A stretch of 64,000 nt of DNA. Origin: Escherichia coli (GTDB taxonomy: Bacteria > Pseudomonadota > Gammaproteobacteria > Enterobacterales > Enterobacteriaceae). Of the stretch, positions 1-8,499 are shown piece after piece (the first letter of the stretch is position 1; each line of letters opens with the position of its first letter). The notes under the pieces were generated by a model that made no database searches, was not told the DNA's origin, and was given only the letters and a program-made list of their open reading frames with translations. The stretch lies in assembly GCF_044324875.1 (NCBI RefSeq), contig NZ_CP172185.1; one strand, 5' to 3'. The translations under genes were made by a program, and so were the position numbers.

Positions 1-1075
1 TATCTTTGCCGTTGTCGTAGTCGTGGAAGGCCAGCAGATATTCCACCTGCGCCTGCTGGGTGAACTTATGGCTGCCCTCGAAGCTAGCGTAGACCGTGGT
101 CAGGTCGTCGGTTTTGTTGTAGACGCTGTTATCCGAGTTATCGGAGTAGCGCAGGATCACCTTGTTCACCCCTCTGTCGTTGGTGTGGCTCAGCACCAGG
201 CCGCCCTGCCAGGCTTCGAGACGCGCGTCGCTGTCCACCGCCTTCGAGTCAAAGCCGTAGTTGGCGTACACCTCGACGTCGATCGGCCCGGCCTTGATGT
301 TGTGGGTTTTGGTGGTCAGCGCGTAGTGGCCGTTGTCCCCGGTGTCGGAGCTGCCGGTACAGGTGATACGCGACGGGTTGGTCTCGTCGGCCATCACTTC
401 CGGGCTACAGGATTTCACCTGCGACACCGCCGCCACGTCGAACTGCACGCCGCCGATATCAAAGTTCTTCACCCCGGCGCCCTGGCCGTCGTGGTTCATC
501 CAGAAGTAGTCGTTGATCCCCTGTTGCGGACGCTGGTGGAAGTCGCGGCCGGCCCAGATATAGGCGTTGGGATTGGATTCCAGCACGTTGGTGACGCCGA
601 CGTAGGCCTTCTTCAGGTTAACCTCGTCGCTCCAGTGGTCGAACATGACGTTGAGATCCCAGATAGCCCCCTGCGCGCTTTTGAAGGCTTTGCTGATCTG
701 GAATTCGCCGCCGTTGCTTTCGTTGCCCAGACGGCCGATCGCCGAGGCGCCGTTATAGGAGCCGTCGACGCCGACATATTTCTGGTCGCCGGTCTGGAAA
801 TGGGCGCCATAGCGGGCATAGCCGCTGAACTTGAGGCCGAACGGAATGGCCATATCCGGCGAGGCGGCGGTGGTCTGTGGGTTGGTAATGACGTCGACCT
901 TTTTGTCGGCCGCGGCGTCAATTTTCGCCTGGCGGTCGGCCAGCGCTTTATCAACGGCTTTGGCGACGATGGCGTCGATCTGTTCCTGAGTAAATTCTTG
1001 CGCCATTACAGAGGTAAGCGGAAAAAACGCGGCGATAACCGCCATGGTTAATGGAAGTTTTTTTATCATTGTCAT
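1..1075 (-). CDS. LamB/maltoporin-family carbohydrate porin, 5' portion (3' end lies left of the window)
   Basis: Absent from the ORF track because it is open at the window edge. Manual minus-strand translation from ATG at 1075 gives MTMIKKLPLTMAVIAAFFPLTSVMAQEF (signal peptide). Further in come FSGYARYG and YIWAGRDFHQR..DYFWMNHDGQGAGVKNFDIGG, which parallel LamB HGYARSG and IWAGKRFYQR..DFYYWDISGPGAG. The 342-aa + ORF 23..1051 is its antisense shadow. Confidence 0.8.
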   Translation of the reverse strand, partial: MTMIKKLPLTMAVIAAFFPLTSVMAQEFTQEQIDAIVAKAVDKALADRQAKIDAAADKKVDVITNPQTTAASPDMAIPFGLKFSGYARYGAHFQTGDQKYVGVDGSYNGASAIGRLGNESNGGEFQISKAFKSAQGAIWDLNVMFDHWSDEVNLKKAYVGVTNVLESNPNAYIWAGRDFHQRPQQGINDYFWMNHDGQGAGVKNFDIGGVQFDVAAVSQVKSCSPEVMADETNPSRITCTGSSDTGDNGHYALTTKTHNIKAGPIDVEVYANYGFDSKAVDSDARLEAWQGGLVLSHTNDRGVNKVILRYSDNSDNSVYNKTDDLTTVYASFEGSHKFTQQAQVEYLLAFHDYDNGKD

Positions 1076-1405
1076 GAGTTTCTCAATATAGGTTAATTTT
1101 ATTCAGACAATAACCAGCCTATTCTGAGCTGACAGAATATGTCGCTATCATCAGAACAAGTTATTTTTTATTTTGTACGGTCACAGAGGCATTACACAAT
1201 TATCGCTACTCGCCCTCCCTCACTGATATTAAAAAGGTGGCACAATGGCAGAACCATCCGCGCGGCGGATTGTTCCTCTATAGACAGTCAAACAGATAGC
1301 CTTTCGGCACAGACAGCATAAATACAACACGAACAAATAAACGCTATTTCCCGGCAGCGGGCACACGGCGGAATACATGCCCCCGCAGGGGCATGTCAGC
1401 CAAAT

Positions 1406-2725
<1,320 letters not shown>

Positions 2726-3136
2726 GATGAACTCCGAAATTGAGGAAGCCGAAAATTAACAACTGTGACACATCGTGTATTCTCATCGTCGGTTGCTCAA
2801 TTACGTTATTTCACTCAGCGATTGAGAAAATGCTCAAATGTGAGCCATCTCGCAAATAAAACTATTTTAAATATCTCGCTTCGCGCGCGTATAGAGTACA
2901 CTTCCTGGGGAATTCAGGTGGGCATAGCGAATTAAAATGCCGGTTTTGTCACATTGCCTGTCTGCCAAAAAATTAGCGGCGGATGGCGGCTCAACGCAAG
3001 TGATACAGGCCTTTGCTTCGAGGATCACAGAAGTAAAAAAACATAATTACTTAATTTAAAAACGTAATAGATTCTTCCATGTCAACTGTGTCAGAAAGTG
3101 TTTCACCTACACAAAACAAACCGGAGTCTGCTTAGA

Positions 3137-4591
3137 ATGAGTAAAAACATAATGCACAGTCGGCATGATGAATATCATAAATTAACCCGTGGAGAACGAA
3201 TTGGTTATGGCATGGGCGACTTTGCGCAAAACCTGGTTTTCGGCACAATTGGGGGTTTTCTGGCTTTGCATATGCTGACGGTAAATACCATCAGCACGGC
3301 AACGGCAGGCTTTATTTTTCTTTTTGTCCGCATAATTAACGTGTTTTGGGATCCGATGGTCGGCACCTACGTGGATAAACGAACCTCGAAGGCAGGGAAA
3401 TATCGTCCGTGGCTGTTACGAGCCGGCGTGCCGCTGGTGATCCTCTCGGCATTACTGTTCGCGCCCATCCCCGGAGTGAAAGGTTCGGTGGCTTTCGCCT
3501 TTATTATTTATCTGGCGCTGGACCTGGTTTATTCCTTAGTCAATATTCCCTATGGCTCGCTGAATGCGTCGCTGACCCGCGACCCGGAATCGATCGATAA
3601 ACTGACCAGTACCCGCATGATGCTGGCCAACAGCGCCAACCTGCTGGTCTATACCCTGTTCCCGATGTTTGTGCAGATGGCGGCGCCGAAAGATCGCAGC
3701 CTGAAAGACACCGGCTTTTTTGGCCTTGAGCTGAATATGGGGAATTATGCCGATCCGTCGGCAAATTACGCCTGGTTTGGCGTGTACGCCATCTATATGA
3801 TCATCGGCGCGGTGGCTCTGTTTATCTGTTATAAATTCACCAAAGAACGCGTTGTCGCGACCGCCGAGCAGACCGCCAACGTCAAAACCACCGACCTTTT
3901 CCACGAGCTCCGACATAACCGCCCGCTGGTTATTCTGGGCATGTTCTTTATGCTGGCCTTTACCTTCATGTTCTTCATGAACACTGTTAACGGCTTCTTC
4001 AACCAGTACGTCGTCGGCCACTCCGAATGGATGGGCGCGGTGGGTCTCGTCGCGTCTATTCCCGGCATCGCCTTCCCGATTTTCTGGCCGAAACTGAAAA
4101 AAATCTTTGGTAAAAAAGGCTTCTTCCATCTGTTCCTCGCCATGTTTATCGTCGGCGAACTGCTGACCTACGTCTGGTCCCGCGAAGGGATGCACGACGC
4201 CCTGTGGCTGGCCTACATCGCCACCTTTATTAAACAGTGGGGCTTAACCTCCGCCACCGGCTTTATGTGGGCGCTGGTACCGGAAGTCATCGCGTACGGC
4301 GAATTAAAATCTGGCAAACGCAATGCCGCCATTATCAATGCCATTATGGGACTCTTCTTCAAGATCGGCTTCACCATCGGCGGCGCGATCCCGCTGTGGC
4401 TGCTGGCGGTGTATGGCTTTAATGAAAGCGGCGCCGTGCAGAGCGCCAGCGCCATCGACGGGATCATTATGACCGCGGTGTGGATCCCGATCGCGCTGGC
4501 CGCTATTTCGATGGTGATTATCCAGGTTTATCCGATCTCCGATAAACATGTTACCGACATCAACCGTCAGCTGGATGAGATCCGCGTGTAG
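3137..4591 (+). CDS. GPH (MelB/YicJ/XynT-type) glycoside-pentoside:cation symporter, probably a xyloside transporter
   Basis: ORF 3098..4591, with the start moved to ATG 3137 (GGAG about 10 nt upstream). It is a polytopic membrane protein with a GYGMGDF N-terminal motif. It sits directly upstream of a GH43 xylosidase. Confidence 0.85.
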   Translation: MSKNIMHSRHDEYHKLTRGERIGYGMGDFAQNLVFGTIGGFLALHMLTVNTISTATAGFIFLFVRIINVFWDPMVGTYVDKRTSKAGKYRPWLLRAGVPLVILSALLFAPIPGVKGSVAFAFIIYLALDLVYSLVNIPYGSLNASLTRDPESIDKLTSTRMMLANSANLLVYTLFPMFVQMAAPKDRSLKDTGFFGLELNMGNYADPSANYAWFGVYAIYMIIGAVALFICYKFTKERVVATAEQTANVKTTDLFHELRHNRPLVILGMFFMLAFTFMFFMNTVNGFFNQYVVGHSEWMGAVGLVASIPGIAFPIFWPKLKKIFGKKGFFHLFLAMFIVGELLTYVWSREGMHDALWLAYIATFIKQWGLTSATGFMWALVPEVIAYGELKSGKRNAAIINAIMGLFFKIGFTIGGAIPLWLLAVYGFNESGAVQSASAIDGIIMTAVWIPIALAAISMVIIQVYPISDKHVTDINRQLDEIRV

Positions 4592-4649
4592 TTAAAAAAA
4601 TTATAAATCAGACCGATTCGTCACTTTCCATTTTAAAAGGTGTAATGAA

Positions 4650-6329
4650 ATGTCACTTATTCAAAACCCGATATTACGCGGCTTTAATGCCGACCCCAGT
4701 ATTATTCGCGTCGAGGATACGTACTATATTGCCAACTCGACGTTTGAGTGGTTTCCGGGCGTGCGTTTACATGAGTCGAAAGACCTGAAAAACTGGAACC
4801 TGCTGCCTTCGCCGCTCTCCACCACCACCCTGCTGGACATGAAGGGCAACCCCTCCTCCGGCGGCATTTGGGCGCCGGCGCTCTCCTGGGCCGACGGGCA
4901 ATTCTGGTTGGTGTATACCGATGTGAAGGTCACCGAAGGCGCCTTCAAAGACATGACCAACTACCTGACCACCGCGAAGGATATTCGGGGCCCGTGGAGC
5001 GACCCGATCAAGCTGAACGGAGTCGGGTTTGACGCCTCGCTGTTCCATGACGACGATGGCCGGAAATATATCGTCCAGCAAACCTGGGATCACCGGGAGT
5101 ACCATCACCCCTTCGATGGCATTACCTTAACGGAGCTGGATACCAACACGCTGAAGTTAATGCCGGAAACCGCGCGCACCATCTACCGCGGCACCGCCGT
5201 AGCGCTGGTCGAGGGGCCGCACCTCTATAAACTGAACGGCTACTACTACCTGTTTGCCGCCCAGGGCGGCACCGTGTTTACCCACCAGGAGGTGGTGGCG
5301 CGGTCGAAAACCCTCGAGGCCGACAGCTTTGAAACCGAGCCGGGCGACGTGTTCTTAACCAACGTCGACACCCCGGACAGCTACATCCAGAAACAGGGCC
5401 ATGGCGCGCTGGTCTCCACCCCGGAAGGCGAATGGTATTACGCCTCGCTCTGCGCCCGGCCGTGGAATCGCCCGGGGGAATCCATCTACGACCCGCGCGG
5501 CTGGTCAACCCTCGGCCGGGAAACCGCGATCCAGAAAGTGTACTGGGATGACGAGGGCTGGCCGCGTATTGAAGGCGGTCACGGCGGGAAAACCTTCGTC
5601 GAAGGACCGAAAGACGCCATCTTCACCGAAAGCGCCAGCGATAATAGCCAGCAGGATGACTTTACGTCGCCAGCCCTCGACCCGAACTGGAATACCCTGC
5701 GGGTGCCGTTTACGGCCAAAATGGGCACCACCGGTAACGGCAAATTAACCTTAATCGGCCAGGGCTCGTTAGCCAATACGCATGATCTGTCGCTGATTGC
5801 CCGCCGCTGGCAGGCCTTCTATTTTGACGCCGCGGTGAAGGTGAAATTCGAGCCCTTCAGCTACCAGCAGATGGCCGGGTTAACGAATTACTATAACGAC
5901 CGCCACTGGAGCTTCGTCTTCCTGACCTGGAATGAAATTAACGGCAAGGTCATCGAAGTCGGCGAAAATAACCGCGGGAAATACACGTCGTACCTGAAAG
6001 ATAACGCCATCAAGGTGCCGGACGGCGTGGAATACGTCTGGTTCCGGACCAAAGTCCGCAAGCAGACCTACAGCTATGAATACAGCTTCGATGGCGTGAC
6101 GTTCACCGAGATCCCGGTCCAGCTGGATGCCGCGGTGCTGTCCGATGACTATGTGTTGCAGAGCTACGGCGGGTTCTTTACCGGGGCGTTCGTCGGCCTG
6201 GCGGCGGTAGACTACGCCGGGTACGGCACCCAGGCTGAGTTTTATCAGTTCGAGTATCAGGAGCTGGGCGATAGCTTAGCGGCCGATGGCAGCTACAGCT
6301 GGGAGGCTGGCGAGACGCGGGATAAGTAA
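4650..6329 (+). CDS. GH43 beta-xylosidase (XynB/YagH-like)
   Basis: 559-aa ORF. The N-terminus NPILRGFNADPSIIRVEDTYYIANSTFEWFPGV is typical of GH43 beta-xylosidases. A C-terminal beta-sandwich-length extension is present. Confidence 0.9.
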   Translation: MSLIQNPILRGFNADPSIIRVEDTYYIANSTFEWFPGVRLHESKDLKNWNLLPSPLSTTTLLDMKGNPSSGGIWAPALSWADGQFWLVYTDVKVTEGAFKDMTNYLTTAKDIRGPWSDPIKLNGVGFDASLFHDDDGRKYIVQQTWDHREYHHPFDGITLTELDTNTLKLMPETARTIYRGTAVALVEGPHLYKLNGYYYLFAAQGGTVFTHQEVVARSKTLEADSFETEPGDVFLTNVDTPDSYIQKQGHGALVSTPEGEWYYASLCARPWNRPGESIYDPRGWSTLGRETAIQKVYWDDEGWPRIEGGHGGKTFVEGPKDAIFTESASDNSQQDDFTSPALDPNWNTLRVPFTAKMGTTGNGKLTLIGQGSLANTHDLSLIARRWQAFYFDAAVKVKFEPFSYQQMAGLTNYYNDRHWSFVFLTWNEINGKVIEVGENNRGKYTSYLKDNAIKVPDGVEYVWFRTKVRKQTYSYEYSFDGVTFTEIPVQLDAAVLSDDYVLQSYGGFFTGAFVGLAAVDYAGYGTQAEFYQFEYQELGDSLAADGSYSWEAGETRDK

Positions 6330-6340
6330 AAGAGAGTGGG

Positions 6341-6375
6341 CCCACGCTACCGGTAAGGTAGCGTGGGGTTTGTGG
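6341..6375 (+). terminator. hairpin after the xylosidase gene
   Basis: cccacgctacc-ggtaa-ggtagcgtggg (11-bp stem), followed by gtttgtgg, starting 12 nt after the stop codon. Confidence 0.5.
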
Positions 6376-6411
6376 TGTGTTTGATGTAATTAAAGCGAGC
6401 GCTGTCGGATG

Positions 6412-7050
6412 TCAGTCTGTGGGGCGCAGCCGGGCCTTCAGCTCTTCGGGGGTAAACGGCGGATCTCGCCGGTGCAGCATCGCATGGCAGTTGGGACATA
6501 CCGGGATCAGATCGGTTTCAGGGTTCAGGCGGTAGTCCTGCTTTATCCCGGCCAGCGGGATGAGATGGTGGATATGGATAAAGCCCTGGCCGATATCGCC
6601 ATAGCGGCTGGCCATATCCAGACCGCATACCTGACACTGGCAGCCATGCAGGCGAAGCGCCGCCTGACGAGCCTGACGGTCGCGCTCATAGCGATTGACC
6701 ACCACCTGCAACGCCGCCCCTTCCACGTACTCCATGGTCGTCTGCCCCTCATCGGGGAAAAGCGCAACCTCGTCATCGCCAGCGCCCTGCGACGCGATCG
6801 TAAATCCTTGCTCCAGTAACAGACGCACGCATTTTGATTTAATCCCCCCGCTGAAATCCGCCGGGGTAAATTCCGTTCCCGTCGCAAGCGTGGCCGCTAA
6901 CCCGACGATGGCTTTTGAAGGATACCGACGCCCCTCAAACTCGATCTCATACAGACGCGCGCTTTTAAACTGATGCGCAACGCCTGCATCGTAAGCGCGA
7001 ATGGCGGCGATGATGCATTCCCTGGATAAATGGTCCGGTAGTTTTTTCAT
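6412..7050 (-). CDS. HNH endonuclease with an uncharacterised ~110-aa N-terminal domain (McrA/COG3183-like; candidate modification-dependent nuclease)
   Basis: 212-aa ORF. The C-terminus reads HGCQCQVCG..GFIHIHHLIPLAG..NPETDLIPVCPNCHAMLH (HNH with Cys pairs). The N-terminal domain carries YPSKAIVGLA..FSGG. Confidence 0.8.
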   Translation of the reverse strand: MKKLPDHLSRECIIAAIRAYDAGVAHQFKSARLYEIEFEGRRYPSKAIVGLAATLATGTEFTPADFSGGIKSKCVRLLLEQGFTIASQGAGDDEVALFPDEGQTTMEYVEGAALQVVVNRYERDRQARQAALRLHGCQCQVCGLDMASRYGDIGQGFIHIHHLIPLAGIKQDYRLNPETDLIPVCPNCHAMLHRRDPPFTPEELKARLRPTD

Positions 7051-7229
7051 AAGACATAGCTATCTGATGGCGCGAAGCTTGAGTATAAATAGAAAGCTAT
7101 GGTCTTTTCGAACAAATAACTGGCAGTGATAATTAAATCGCGATCCACGTAGAATCGCCGCATCTGGTAGGTTGATCGGCAAGGATTTTGCGAGCATCAT
7201 CGCATTTATTTAGCTGCCAATGTAACGCT

Positions 7230-8099
7230 ATGCCCTCCAGCACGACCCTGCAACACGCGATCGAGAACATCACCATCTGGCGCAAAGGCGAACAGCGTGC
7301 GCCGCATAAACCACTATTGCTGCTGTACGTCCTCTCGCAATACCAGCGCGGCCATGCGCGGATGTTCGACTACGCCTCGGAGATACGTGATGAGCTGCAT
7401 AGCCTGCTGGAACGCTTTGGCCCGCAGCGCCGCCAGTACCGGCCGGACATGCCCTTCTGGCGCCTGAAAGGCGACGGCTTCTGGGAGCTACACAACAGCG
7501 AACAGTGCTCAACCCAGGGCAGCCGACAGCCGCCCGGCAAAGAGCTGGAGCTCTGCCACGTCGCCGGCGGCTTTGATGAGCAGCATTTTGCGTTACTTAA
7601 CAGAAATAAGAAGCTGATCAATACCCTCGCCCATCAGATCCTCGAGGCGCACTTTCCGGAGAGTATTCAGGAAGAACTGGCTGAAGAGATGGGGTTTGAT
7701 CTGCTGCAGATCCGCAAAGAGCGCGACCCGCATTTTCGCCAGCAGGTGCTGCGCGCCTATAACTATGAGTGCGCTATCTGCGGCTTCAATATGCGCCATG
7801 ATAATACCTCCGTCGCCCTGGAAGCGGCCCATATCAAGTGGAAGCAGCACGGCGGCCCCTGCGAAATCCCTAACGGCCTGGCGCTCTGCGCGATTCACCA
7901 TAAGGCTTTTGATAAAGGATCCATTGGTCTGGATGAGGATATGCGCATCCAGGTTTCGCCGGCGGTGAACGGCGGAGGCATCGTTGGCAGGTTGTTCTGG
8001 GATTTTGATGGTAAGCCGATTACCTTGCCGATGGGGAAAGAATGCTATCCCCAGGAGGGGTTTGTGGCGTGGCACCGGCGGGAGGTGTTCAGGGGATGA
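7230..8099 (+). CDS. HNH (HNH_2-type) restriction endonuclease; the N-terminal domain resembles the sulfur-binding (phosphorothioate-DNA reader) domain of ScoMcrA/SprMcrA-type enzymes
   Basis: ORF 7188..8099, with the start moved to ATG 7230. The N-terminus has WRKGEQRAPHKPLLLLYVL and MPFWRLKGDGFWEL. The C-terminus has YECAICGF..EAAHIKWKQHGG..NGLALCAIHHKAFDKG. The HNH call is firm. The phosphorothioate-reader assignment is from memory only. Confidence 0.75.
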   Translation: MPSSTTLQHAIENITIWRKGEQRAPHKPLLLLYVLSQYQRGHARMFDYASEIRDELHSLLERFGPQRRQYRPDMPFWRLKGDGFWELHNSEQCSTQGSRQPPGKELELCHVAGGFDEQHFALLNRNKKLINTLAHQILEAHFPESIQEELAEEMGFDLLQIRKERDPHFRQQVLRAYNYECAICGFNMRHDNTSVALEAAHIKWKQHGGPCEIPNGLALCAIHHKAFDKGSIGLDEDMRIQVSPAVNGGGIVGRLFWDFDGKPITLPMGKECYPQEGFVAWHRREVFRG

Positions 8100-8499
8100 G
8101 GGGGATGGTGATAAGCGGGTTTCGATGTTGAGCGTAGGGTTTAGGGATTGGGACTGTGTTTCGGAGAGGATTTCGTGGTTGATCAATGATTGGTCGTGGC
8201 TAGGTTAAAGGACTTATTTATTGATTGTTTTGATATTGATGCGAAGGCCTGACTCAAACATGCGATTTAACCTCATGATTTAAAATTGTTAATAATAAAC
8301 AACACCATCCTATACCAACACAGATACCAACACGAAAAATCACTGGTTTTCGGCATCGAACCAGGACAATCAGGTCCTGATTGAGATACCGAGCTCTGTT
8401 ACTCGTCATCTGCCTCGACAGGCTCCATTGCATCAAGTGGTACTCGCACCATCGCGATAGATCCAATCCGGATAAAAGCATCTTCCCCATCTATATCGG

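Follow-up and report, generated by a model that had tools for sequence, protein, structure and literature searches.

The closest described relatives of the locus analysed here are the restriction enzymes ScoMcrA and EcoWI. ScoMcrA from Streptomyces coelicolor combines a head domain, a sulfur-binding domain (SBD), an SRA domain and an HNH nuclease domain in a single polypeptide (5ZMM; PMC6224610). Its head is small and flexibly attached, with a function that was reported as unknown (PMC6224610), and a literature search found mention of this domain in the ScoMcrA paper only. EcoWI, composed of an SBD and an HNH domain, is a dimer that recognises GpsAAC/GpsTTC, cuts at N7/N6 and, acting alone, restricts dnd+ (GpsAAC-modified) plasmids in vivo (PMC7461809); cleavage or restriction dependent on phosphorothioate (PT) modification has been shown for EcoWI and four homologs (PMC7461809, Lutz et al. 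2020). The locus is a divergent pair of nuclease genes, here called P1 and P2, in a stretch of 64,000 nucleotides (the window) of the Escherichia coli contig NZ_CP172185.1 (assembly GCF_044324875.1). With moderate confidence, the two genes are regarded as encoding two autonomous modification-dependent (type IV/type IIM-like) HNH nucleases, inherited together as one compact cassette of divergent genes.

The P1 gene (6412..7050, minus strand) encodes a 212-aa protein with a ScoMcrA_N ('head') domain and an HNH domain (RefSeq WP_045146948.1, 'HNH endonuclease'), and the P2 gene (7230..8099, plus strand) encodes a 289-aa SBD-HNH_2 protein of the EcoWI family (NF045808; RefSeq WP_045146950.1), for which an identical E. 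coli locus carries the RefSeq name 'phosphorothioated DNA-binding restriction endonuclease'. The genes are separated by an intergenic spacer of 179 bp (7051..7229, no strand). The ATG at 7230 is taken as the start of P2, in agreement with the RefSeq protein and the N-termini of homologs; a longer alternative open reading frame (ORF) starts with a TTG at 7188. The ORFs, strands and spacer of the initial annotation are correct, the motifs that it quoted (RAPHKPLLLLYVL, MPFWRLKGDGFWEL, HIKW, NGLALCAIHHKAFD, YPSKAIVGLA, FSGG, CQCQVC, HIHH and CPNCH) are all present in the translations, and the HNH-type nuclease domain that it assigned to each protein corresponds to Pfam HNH in P1 and HNH_2 in P2. 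Among 5426 complete E. coli genomes, 11 carry the 1.95-kb region of the pair at 99.9-100% identity. ScoMcrA is homologous to the P1 head, the P1 HNH domain and the P2 SBD, but in the window these domains are distributed between two polypeptides, which differ in nuclease type (HNH and HNH_2). The PADLOC type IV model PDLC03662 is matched by P1 at profile positions 28-91 and by P2 at positions 97-246, which indicates that each protein supplies one part of the N-terminal half of a ScoMcrA-like enzyme. No match to an SRA domain was found in P1 or P2, and the four-domain single-polypeptide architecture of ScoMcrA is absent from both.

P2 is a nuclease of a known kind, already named by RefSeq and belonging to a family that has been characterised biochemically as EcoWI. 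It matches the NCBIfam model NF045808 (PT-DNA_restrict) with 440.8 bits (cutoff 180) over profile positions 2-284 of 284, and homologs from E. coli W, from integrative and conjugative elements (ICEs) and from Salmonella score 435-441 bits. The family counts 3323 matches and is common in Escherichia, Citrobacter, Salmonella, Enterobacter and Klebsiella. The sulfur-binding domain (aa 11-155; 7260..7694, plus strand) aligns in phmmer searches with the SBDs of ScoMcrA (5zmo, E 1.3e-6; also 5zmm and 5zmn) and SprMcrA (7cc9, 7ccj and 7ccd, E 6e-5), and P2 homologs carry Pfam domain PF26340 (DNA-SBD_ScoMcrA). It is followed by the HNH_2 nuclease domain (aa 181-235; 7770..7934, plus strand; Pfam PF13391, E 9.8e-10), and the C-terminus of the protein is similar to the HNH domain of TagI (6ghs). 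In the alignment, residues H26, K27, M74 and P75 of P2 occupy the pocket positions H116, R117, Y164 and P165 of ScoMcrA. In the ScoMcrA SBD, conservation is highest at H116 and P165, the R117 position is a lysine in most homologs with affinity kept, and the Y164 position is variable, a Y164M variant showing improved binding (PMC6224610). The curated model, the SBD homology and the intact pocket residues thus bear out the proposal that P2 is an SBD-HNH nuclease of the PT-dependent type.

P2 shares with EcoWI the two-domain architecture, the NCBIfam family, the HK...MP pocket motif and nearly the same length, with 289 versus 290 residues (PMC7461809; EcoWI-seq, PMC9521924). The 290-aa protein WP_000168572.1 of E. 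coli W, 78.5% identical to P2, is presumably EcoWI according to the REBASE naming convention, the papers giving no accession. Like P2, the presumed EcoWI is encoded in a divergent pair of this kind, but P2 is a ~21% divergent allele located at another chromosomal site, in a Klebsiella-like imported block. An identification of P2 as EcoWI itself on the basis of molecular mass was abandoned, since the values (33.36 kDa for P2, 33.31 kDa for the strain W protein and 33.4 kDa as quoted) fit either protein. SprMcrA and other SBD-HNH enzymes, for which PT-dependent cleavage has been established, have the SBD plus HNH architecture in common with P2; however, SprMcrA is Mn-dependent, cuts at a variable distance and is distant in sequence, whereas P2 belongs to the enterobacterial EcoWI clade (PMC7470945). 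Membership of this family suggests that the P2 allele of the window would be PT-dependent as well. Its SBD may dock the Rp sulfur of phosphorothioated DNA in the hydrophobic pocket formed by H26, K27, M74 and P75. By analogy with EcoWI, P2 would probably be a homodimer in which the HNH_2 domain cleaves at a distance of a few base pairs from the modification, and in a host that does not itself make dnd modifications the enzyme would be expected to restrict plasmids and phages that carry them.

Judged by its sequence, P1 is an uncharacterised ScoMcrA_N-HNH protein. Its nuclease domain, of the McrA type (aa 137-195; 6466..6642, minus strand), matches Pfam HNH (PF01844; aa 139-195, E 2e-6) and resembles the HNH domains of EcoKMcrA (6ghc, E 1e-4) and ScoMcrA. 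The zinc and catalytic residues are intact, and 20 homologs show no variation at C139, C142, H161, H162, C185, N187, C188 and H193. The N-terminal head domain (aa 1 to ~90; 6781..7050, minus strand) aligns through aa 7-86 with residues 6-92 of full-length ScoMcrA (E 2.8e-8), although the sequence identity between the two heads is low, at ~35%. A total of 1175 P1 homologs was found, with precomputed Pfam matches to PF26345 (ScoMcrA_N) and PF01844, and no NCBIfam family exists for the head. An AlphaFold model of aa 1-100 (pLDDT 84, pTM 0.78) has the topology alpha-beta-beta-alpha-alpha-beta. Comparisons of sequence and structure revealed no SRA, EVE, YTH or PUA fold in the head; its structural neighbours are weak and resemble winged-helix or helix-turn-helix (HTH) domains, and a profile-profile comparison with the SBD was negative (probability 0.2%). 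The suggestion that the N-terminus of P1 is a reader of modified DNA was therefore not upheld: the region is the ScoMcrA head, which has neither a known reader fold nor kinship to the SBD. In overall layout P1 is like EcoKMcrA, the SRA-HNH enzyme TagI and the wH-HNH and Mrr_N-HNH proteins, which also have a small N-terminal domain, serving DNA recognition in those proteins, in front of a C-terminal HNH domain.

The head belongs to a large superfamily. A profile of the head alone, run against 1.84 billion proteins, retrieved 3413 cluster representatives at 50% identity, with lengths of 93-1567 aa and the domain located at the N-terminus or internally. Pfam domains were counted in 86 of the longer representatives. 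The nuclease partners were HNH (40), HNH_2 (21) and HNH_5 (7), the reader-type partners EVE (13), SAD/SRA (3), AspBHI_N (1), MrcB_N (1) and Mrr_N (1), and the other partners McrB-type AAA_5 (7), nSTAND3 (7), NOV_C (4), DUF3427 (3) and NUDIX (1). Partners of these kinds are typical of modification-dependent restriction systems. Since the head is the only non-nuclease domain in a protein of about 210 residues, a role in DNA targeting or sensing would be the most economical explanation of its presence, which is plausible though unproven; P1 would then most likely use the head as a targeting or sensor module for some non-self feature of DNA.

E. coli is normally Dam+ and Dcm+. A full-length P1-type gene is present in ~23% of E. 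coli genomes without an immunity gene, so that the target of P1 is presumably not Dam or Dcm methylation, and P1 presumably does not attack DNA carrying either. The modification-dependence of P1 is inferred from the fusion partners of the head and from this tolerance in Dam+ Dcm+ hosts. Both observations bear on the alternative that only P2 is a type IV enzyme and that P1 is not modification-dependent, its head being a generic DNA-binding or protein-interaction module on a nonspecific or structure-specific nuclease (toxin-like, repair or selfish HNH). Such a role would suit the flexible attachment and the reported lack of a known function of the head in ScoMcrA, the weak winged-helix/HTH-like structural neighbours, the absence of an NCBIfam family and the frequent position of the head beside a bona fide reader (EVE or SRA) in multi-domain proteins, which points to an accessory function. 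However, the generic module would be the sole non-nuclease domain of P1, the fusion partners of the head are overwhelmingly type IV effectors, and the tolerance of P1 by ~1200 E. coli genomes that contain no immunity or antitoxin gene for it argues for discrimination with respect to self DNA. This alternative is considered unlikely.

The initial annotation expected the two genes to be neighbours in other genomes as well, and this expectation withstood the comparison: the divergent pair occurs in at least six genomic contexts besides the window, in E. coli, Klebsiella and Citrobacter. Head-to-head pairs with a spacer of 179 bp are found in K. aerogenes, adjoining an Mrr_N-HNH gene and a type I hsdR, in Klebsiella sp. 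R445, near Wadjet and SymE, and in Klebsiella-labelled assemblies which share the xylA-MFS-GH43 block of the window. The spacer measures 141 bp in C. farmeri, where the pair lies near type VI secretion system genes, and in C. amalonaticus, and 136 bp in E. coli between nanS and mcrCB. Across these pairs the identity to the proteins of the window is 65-79% for P1 and 78-86% for P2, and the two proteins co-diverge. In a metagenome sample of 80 loci with a P1 gene near-identical or 83% identical to that of the window, P2 is present at 54 loci and the spacer is exactly 179 bp in 53.

Adjacency of this kind could also arise by coincidence, when unrelated defence genes are gathered by the accumulation of defence islands. 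The neighbourhoods are indeed rich in McrBC, type I restriction-modification, Wadjet, SymE and Mrr_N-HNH genes, and in an E. coli ICE family distant versions of P1 and P2 lie 4-6 kb apart and vary independently, elements carrying both, only P1 or only P2. Nevertheless, mere accumulation would have to produce the same orientation with spacers of 136-179 bp in at least seven flanking contexts and three genera, and a spacer of exactly 179 bp in three lineages despite diverged sequence; coincidence is thus improbable. The pairing is genuine and has a wide distribution, without being obligatory. In K. aerogenes, the gene beside the pair (locus L084, 3260-3919) encodes an Mrr_N plus HNH protein of 219 aa, so that three reader-HNH genes stand in a row; this protein has no NCBIfam family either.

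Each of the genes is also found without the other. Solo P2 genes occur in Salmonella (~3300 assembly blocks), E. hormaechei and E. coli EC291. Solo P1 genes were found in Raoultella, Pseudescherichia, Edaphobacter, Hylemonella, Marinobacter and an Elusimicrobia metagenome-assembled genome, in a contig scan with the full-length P1 alignment that returned mostly HNH-only relatives, with six loci informative for the head. The ICE version of the SBD-HNH gene is present in 43 and that of the head-HNH gene in 8 of the 5426 complete E. coli genomes. In E. coli W (NC_017635.1, 4797973-4799138; locus L198, 27974-29139) the SBD-HNH gene between mcrB and nanS is intact, whereas P1 is a 105-bp pseudogene left by a deletion of 571 bp.

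The spacers of the different pair types cannot be aligned with each other except beside P2, where a cis element is conserved (7172..7204, plus strand). It consists of TTGATC (7172-7177) and CATCAT (7195-7200), separated by 17 nt, and an overlapping palindrome, TTGCGA-GCATCA-TCGCA(A), at 7188-7204. The element is unique in the window (0.01 expected by chance) and invariant in all six pair types and at the solo P2 loci of Salmonella, E. hormaechei and E. coli EC291. The perfect palindrome TTGCGA-N6-TCGCAA is likewise invariant before EcoWI-family genes of Escherichia, Klebsiella, Citrobacter, Salmonella and Enterobacter, whatever their neighbours, as judged from the regions upstream of P2 homologs in loci L003, L084, L087, L177, L183, L188, L192 and L194. 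The element is a putative P2 promoter with an overlapping operator. Because it accompanies P2 even where P1 is missing, the idea that the spacer is a shared bidirectional control region was rejected. A structured RNA (fold z-score +1.1, no Rfam match) and a terminator (weak call with a 5-bp stem, the T-tract not being conserved in Salmonella) were also rejected as explanations of the palindrome. A consensus scan alone yielded one sigma-70-like promoter candidate per strand, TCGAAA-18-TATACT for P1 (7082..7111, minus strand) and GTGATA-18-TAGAAT for P2 (7126..7155, plus strand), both in the non-conserved part of the spacer; that for P1 is not conserved between pair types.

The initial annotation left open whether the two nucleases act independently or as a unit, and the evidence leans clearly towards independence. 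In an obligate two-component system, P1 and P2 would form a hetero-oligomer that rebuilds the head and SBD arrangement of ScoMcrA in trans, and neither protein would restrict properly alone. That ScoMcrA has its head and SBD fused, that the divergent adjacency is conserved in at least seven contexts and that the two proteins co-diverge is what such a system would lead one to expect. The consistent co-occurrence that marks an obligate two-gene system was not found, however, solo P1 and solo P2 being common, the latter in the Salmonella blocks mentioned above and the former in many taxa. Of the 5426 complete E. coli genomes, 1239 possess P1 at the nanS locus, 1707 P2 and 326 both, against ~390 expected if they were independent, where presence stands for at least 80% nucleotide coverage and not for ORF integrity, and kinship between genomes is ignored; genomes with both intact are therefore not in excess. 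In addition, EcoWI works alone in vivo and in vitro, strain W retains P1 as a pseudogene only, and the sole conserved spacer element tracks P2 even without P1. Support from fused homologs, of the Rosetta-stone kind, was sought in the 150 closest head-domain representatives (phmmer, E below 10), among which no head plus SBD fusion was found; this fusion seems to be confined to the ScoMcrA lineage. An obligate unit is accordingly judged highly improbable.

The separability of the genes and the experimental self-sufficiency of EcoWI favour two autonomous nucleases in one cassette. Some points weigh against this reading. The same head-to-head arrangement is kept across 20-35% protein divergence, which may reflect functional coupling, and a coupling like that implied by the fused head and SBD of ScoMcrA could escape presence/absence counts, of which those at the nanS locus are, in addition, blind to ORF integrity and kinship. 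A stronger version of the pairing, in which the two proteins cooperate, for instance with P1 acting on PT-DNA that has been nicked or bound by P2, may also be envisaged.

Loss of single genes is recorded in several forms. In 23 metagenome loci the homology to the window stops at position 7210 (no strand) and is followed by a fragment of the insertion sequence (IS) IS256, while P1 is still a full 212-aa ORF. These P2-less loci had been considered as a sign of an alternative partner gene for P1, but P2 was lost from them by IS256-mediated deletion, with one breakpoint shared by all. Another 29 complete E. coli genomes contain an isolated spacer segment of 156 bp (window 7055-7210; locus L002, 6001-6156), 96.8% identical, which is flanked by an IS5-like element and an IS256 pseudogene, with polysaccharide genes alongside. 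This segment ends at the same 7210 boundary and is evidently all that is left of a copy of the pair that has been destroyed. In some C. amalonaticus assemblies (loci L191 and L193, 2723-3244) the head-HNH protein is called as an N-terminally truncated form of 173 aa, compared with 211 aa in locus L192, which may represent a further case of P1 erosion beside an intact P2.

At the nanS locus, the small protein YthB (32 aa, MNKLPAHLSR followed by QNCKIASTNLSEIIPRRAAVLK) of K-12-type strains is a deletion scar of the P1 gene, as seen in E. coli strain 7/2 (locus L197, 2726-2824). It opens with the initial ~10 codons of the head-HNH gene and continues with sequence from just beyond the stop codon of that gene, with a 15-nt overlap at the junction (comparison with locus L185, 2625-3364). 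This derivation from the start of a P1-type gene accounts for a weak match of YthB to aa 1-16 of P1. Beside ythB lies a frameshifted 5' fragment of the SBD-HNH gene, followed by yjhR. Remnants of the two-gene cassette are present in ~90% of E. coli genomes. The ICEs that carry the distant versions are of the MobH/ArdC/TraG type and are inserted at tRNA-Leu (loci L088-L096 and L180-L182). One of their sites holds variable defence cargo (AbiE, DarTG, head-HNH, RES toxin), and at a second site the SBD-HNH gene lies next to a glgS-like gene.

Within the window the pair shares the composition of the neighbouring sugar genes, with a GC content of 0.55-0.61 across the xylA-MFS-GH43 block and both nuclease genes, and of ~0.46 beyond position 8200, in a region that contains pseudogene fragments, an IS3 and CP4-like island genes. 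The sugar block and the pair (window ~1-8200) are syntenic in Klebsiella-labelled assemblies (loci L199-L202), in which P2 is 98% identical and the downstream genes differ. The shared GC content and synteny identify the pair as the edge of a Klebsiella-like imported segment rather than as a separate insertion, and suggest that the whole segment was acquired horizontally by E. coli. Of the proposed defence islet at a seam, the compositional seam at the pair is therefore real, but an insertion of the pair at that seam is not supported. In agreement with the initial annotation, no methyltransferase, dnd or ssp gene is annotated by RefSeq within 12 kb on either side of the pair in the 100%-identical locus of E. 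coli ES1, as would be expected of a modification-dependent (type IV) system.

P2 adds one more EcoWI-family enzyme and nothing new in kind, although its allele might serve as an alternative in PT-mapping tools. The value of the locus lies in P1 and in the pairing. The head has been without an assigned function since the structure of 2018; in P1, a small nuclease with a wide distribution in E. coli, Klebsiella and Citrobacter, no other domain accompanies the catalytic one. The head is also a promiscuous module (~3400 clusters) in type IV-like architectures, so that its ligand can be tested with a domain of 95 residues. The population data also provide a worked example of a two-gene defence cassette that erodes gene by gene. 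Tentatively, and at somewhat less than an even chance, the head may be an unrecognised DNA-sensor domain and the ScoMcrA_N-HNH proteins an uncharacterised type IV family, present in full length in ~23% of complete E. coli genomes, with a non-Dam, non-Dcm target (a modification or a structure) and ancestrally paired with EcoWI-type nucleases. If this sensor reading is true, one cassette would cover two classes of modified invader DNA.

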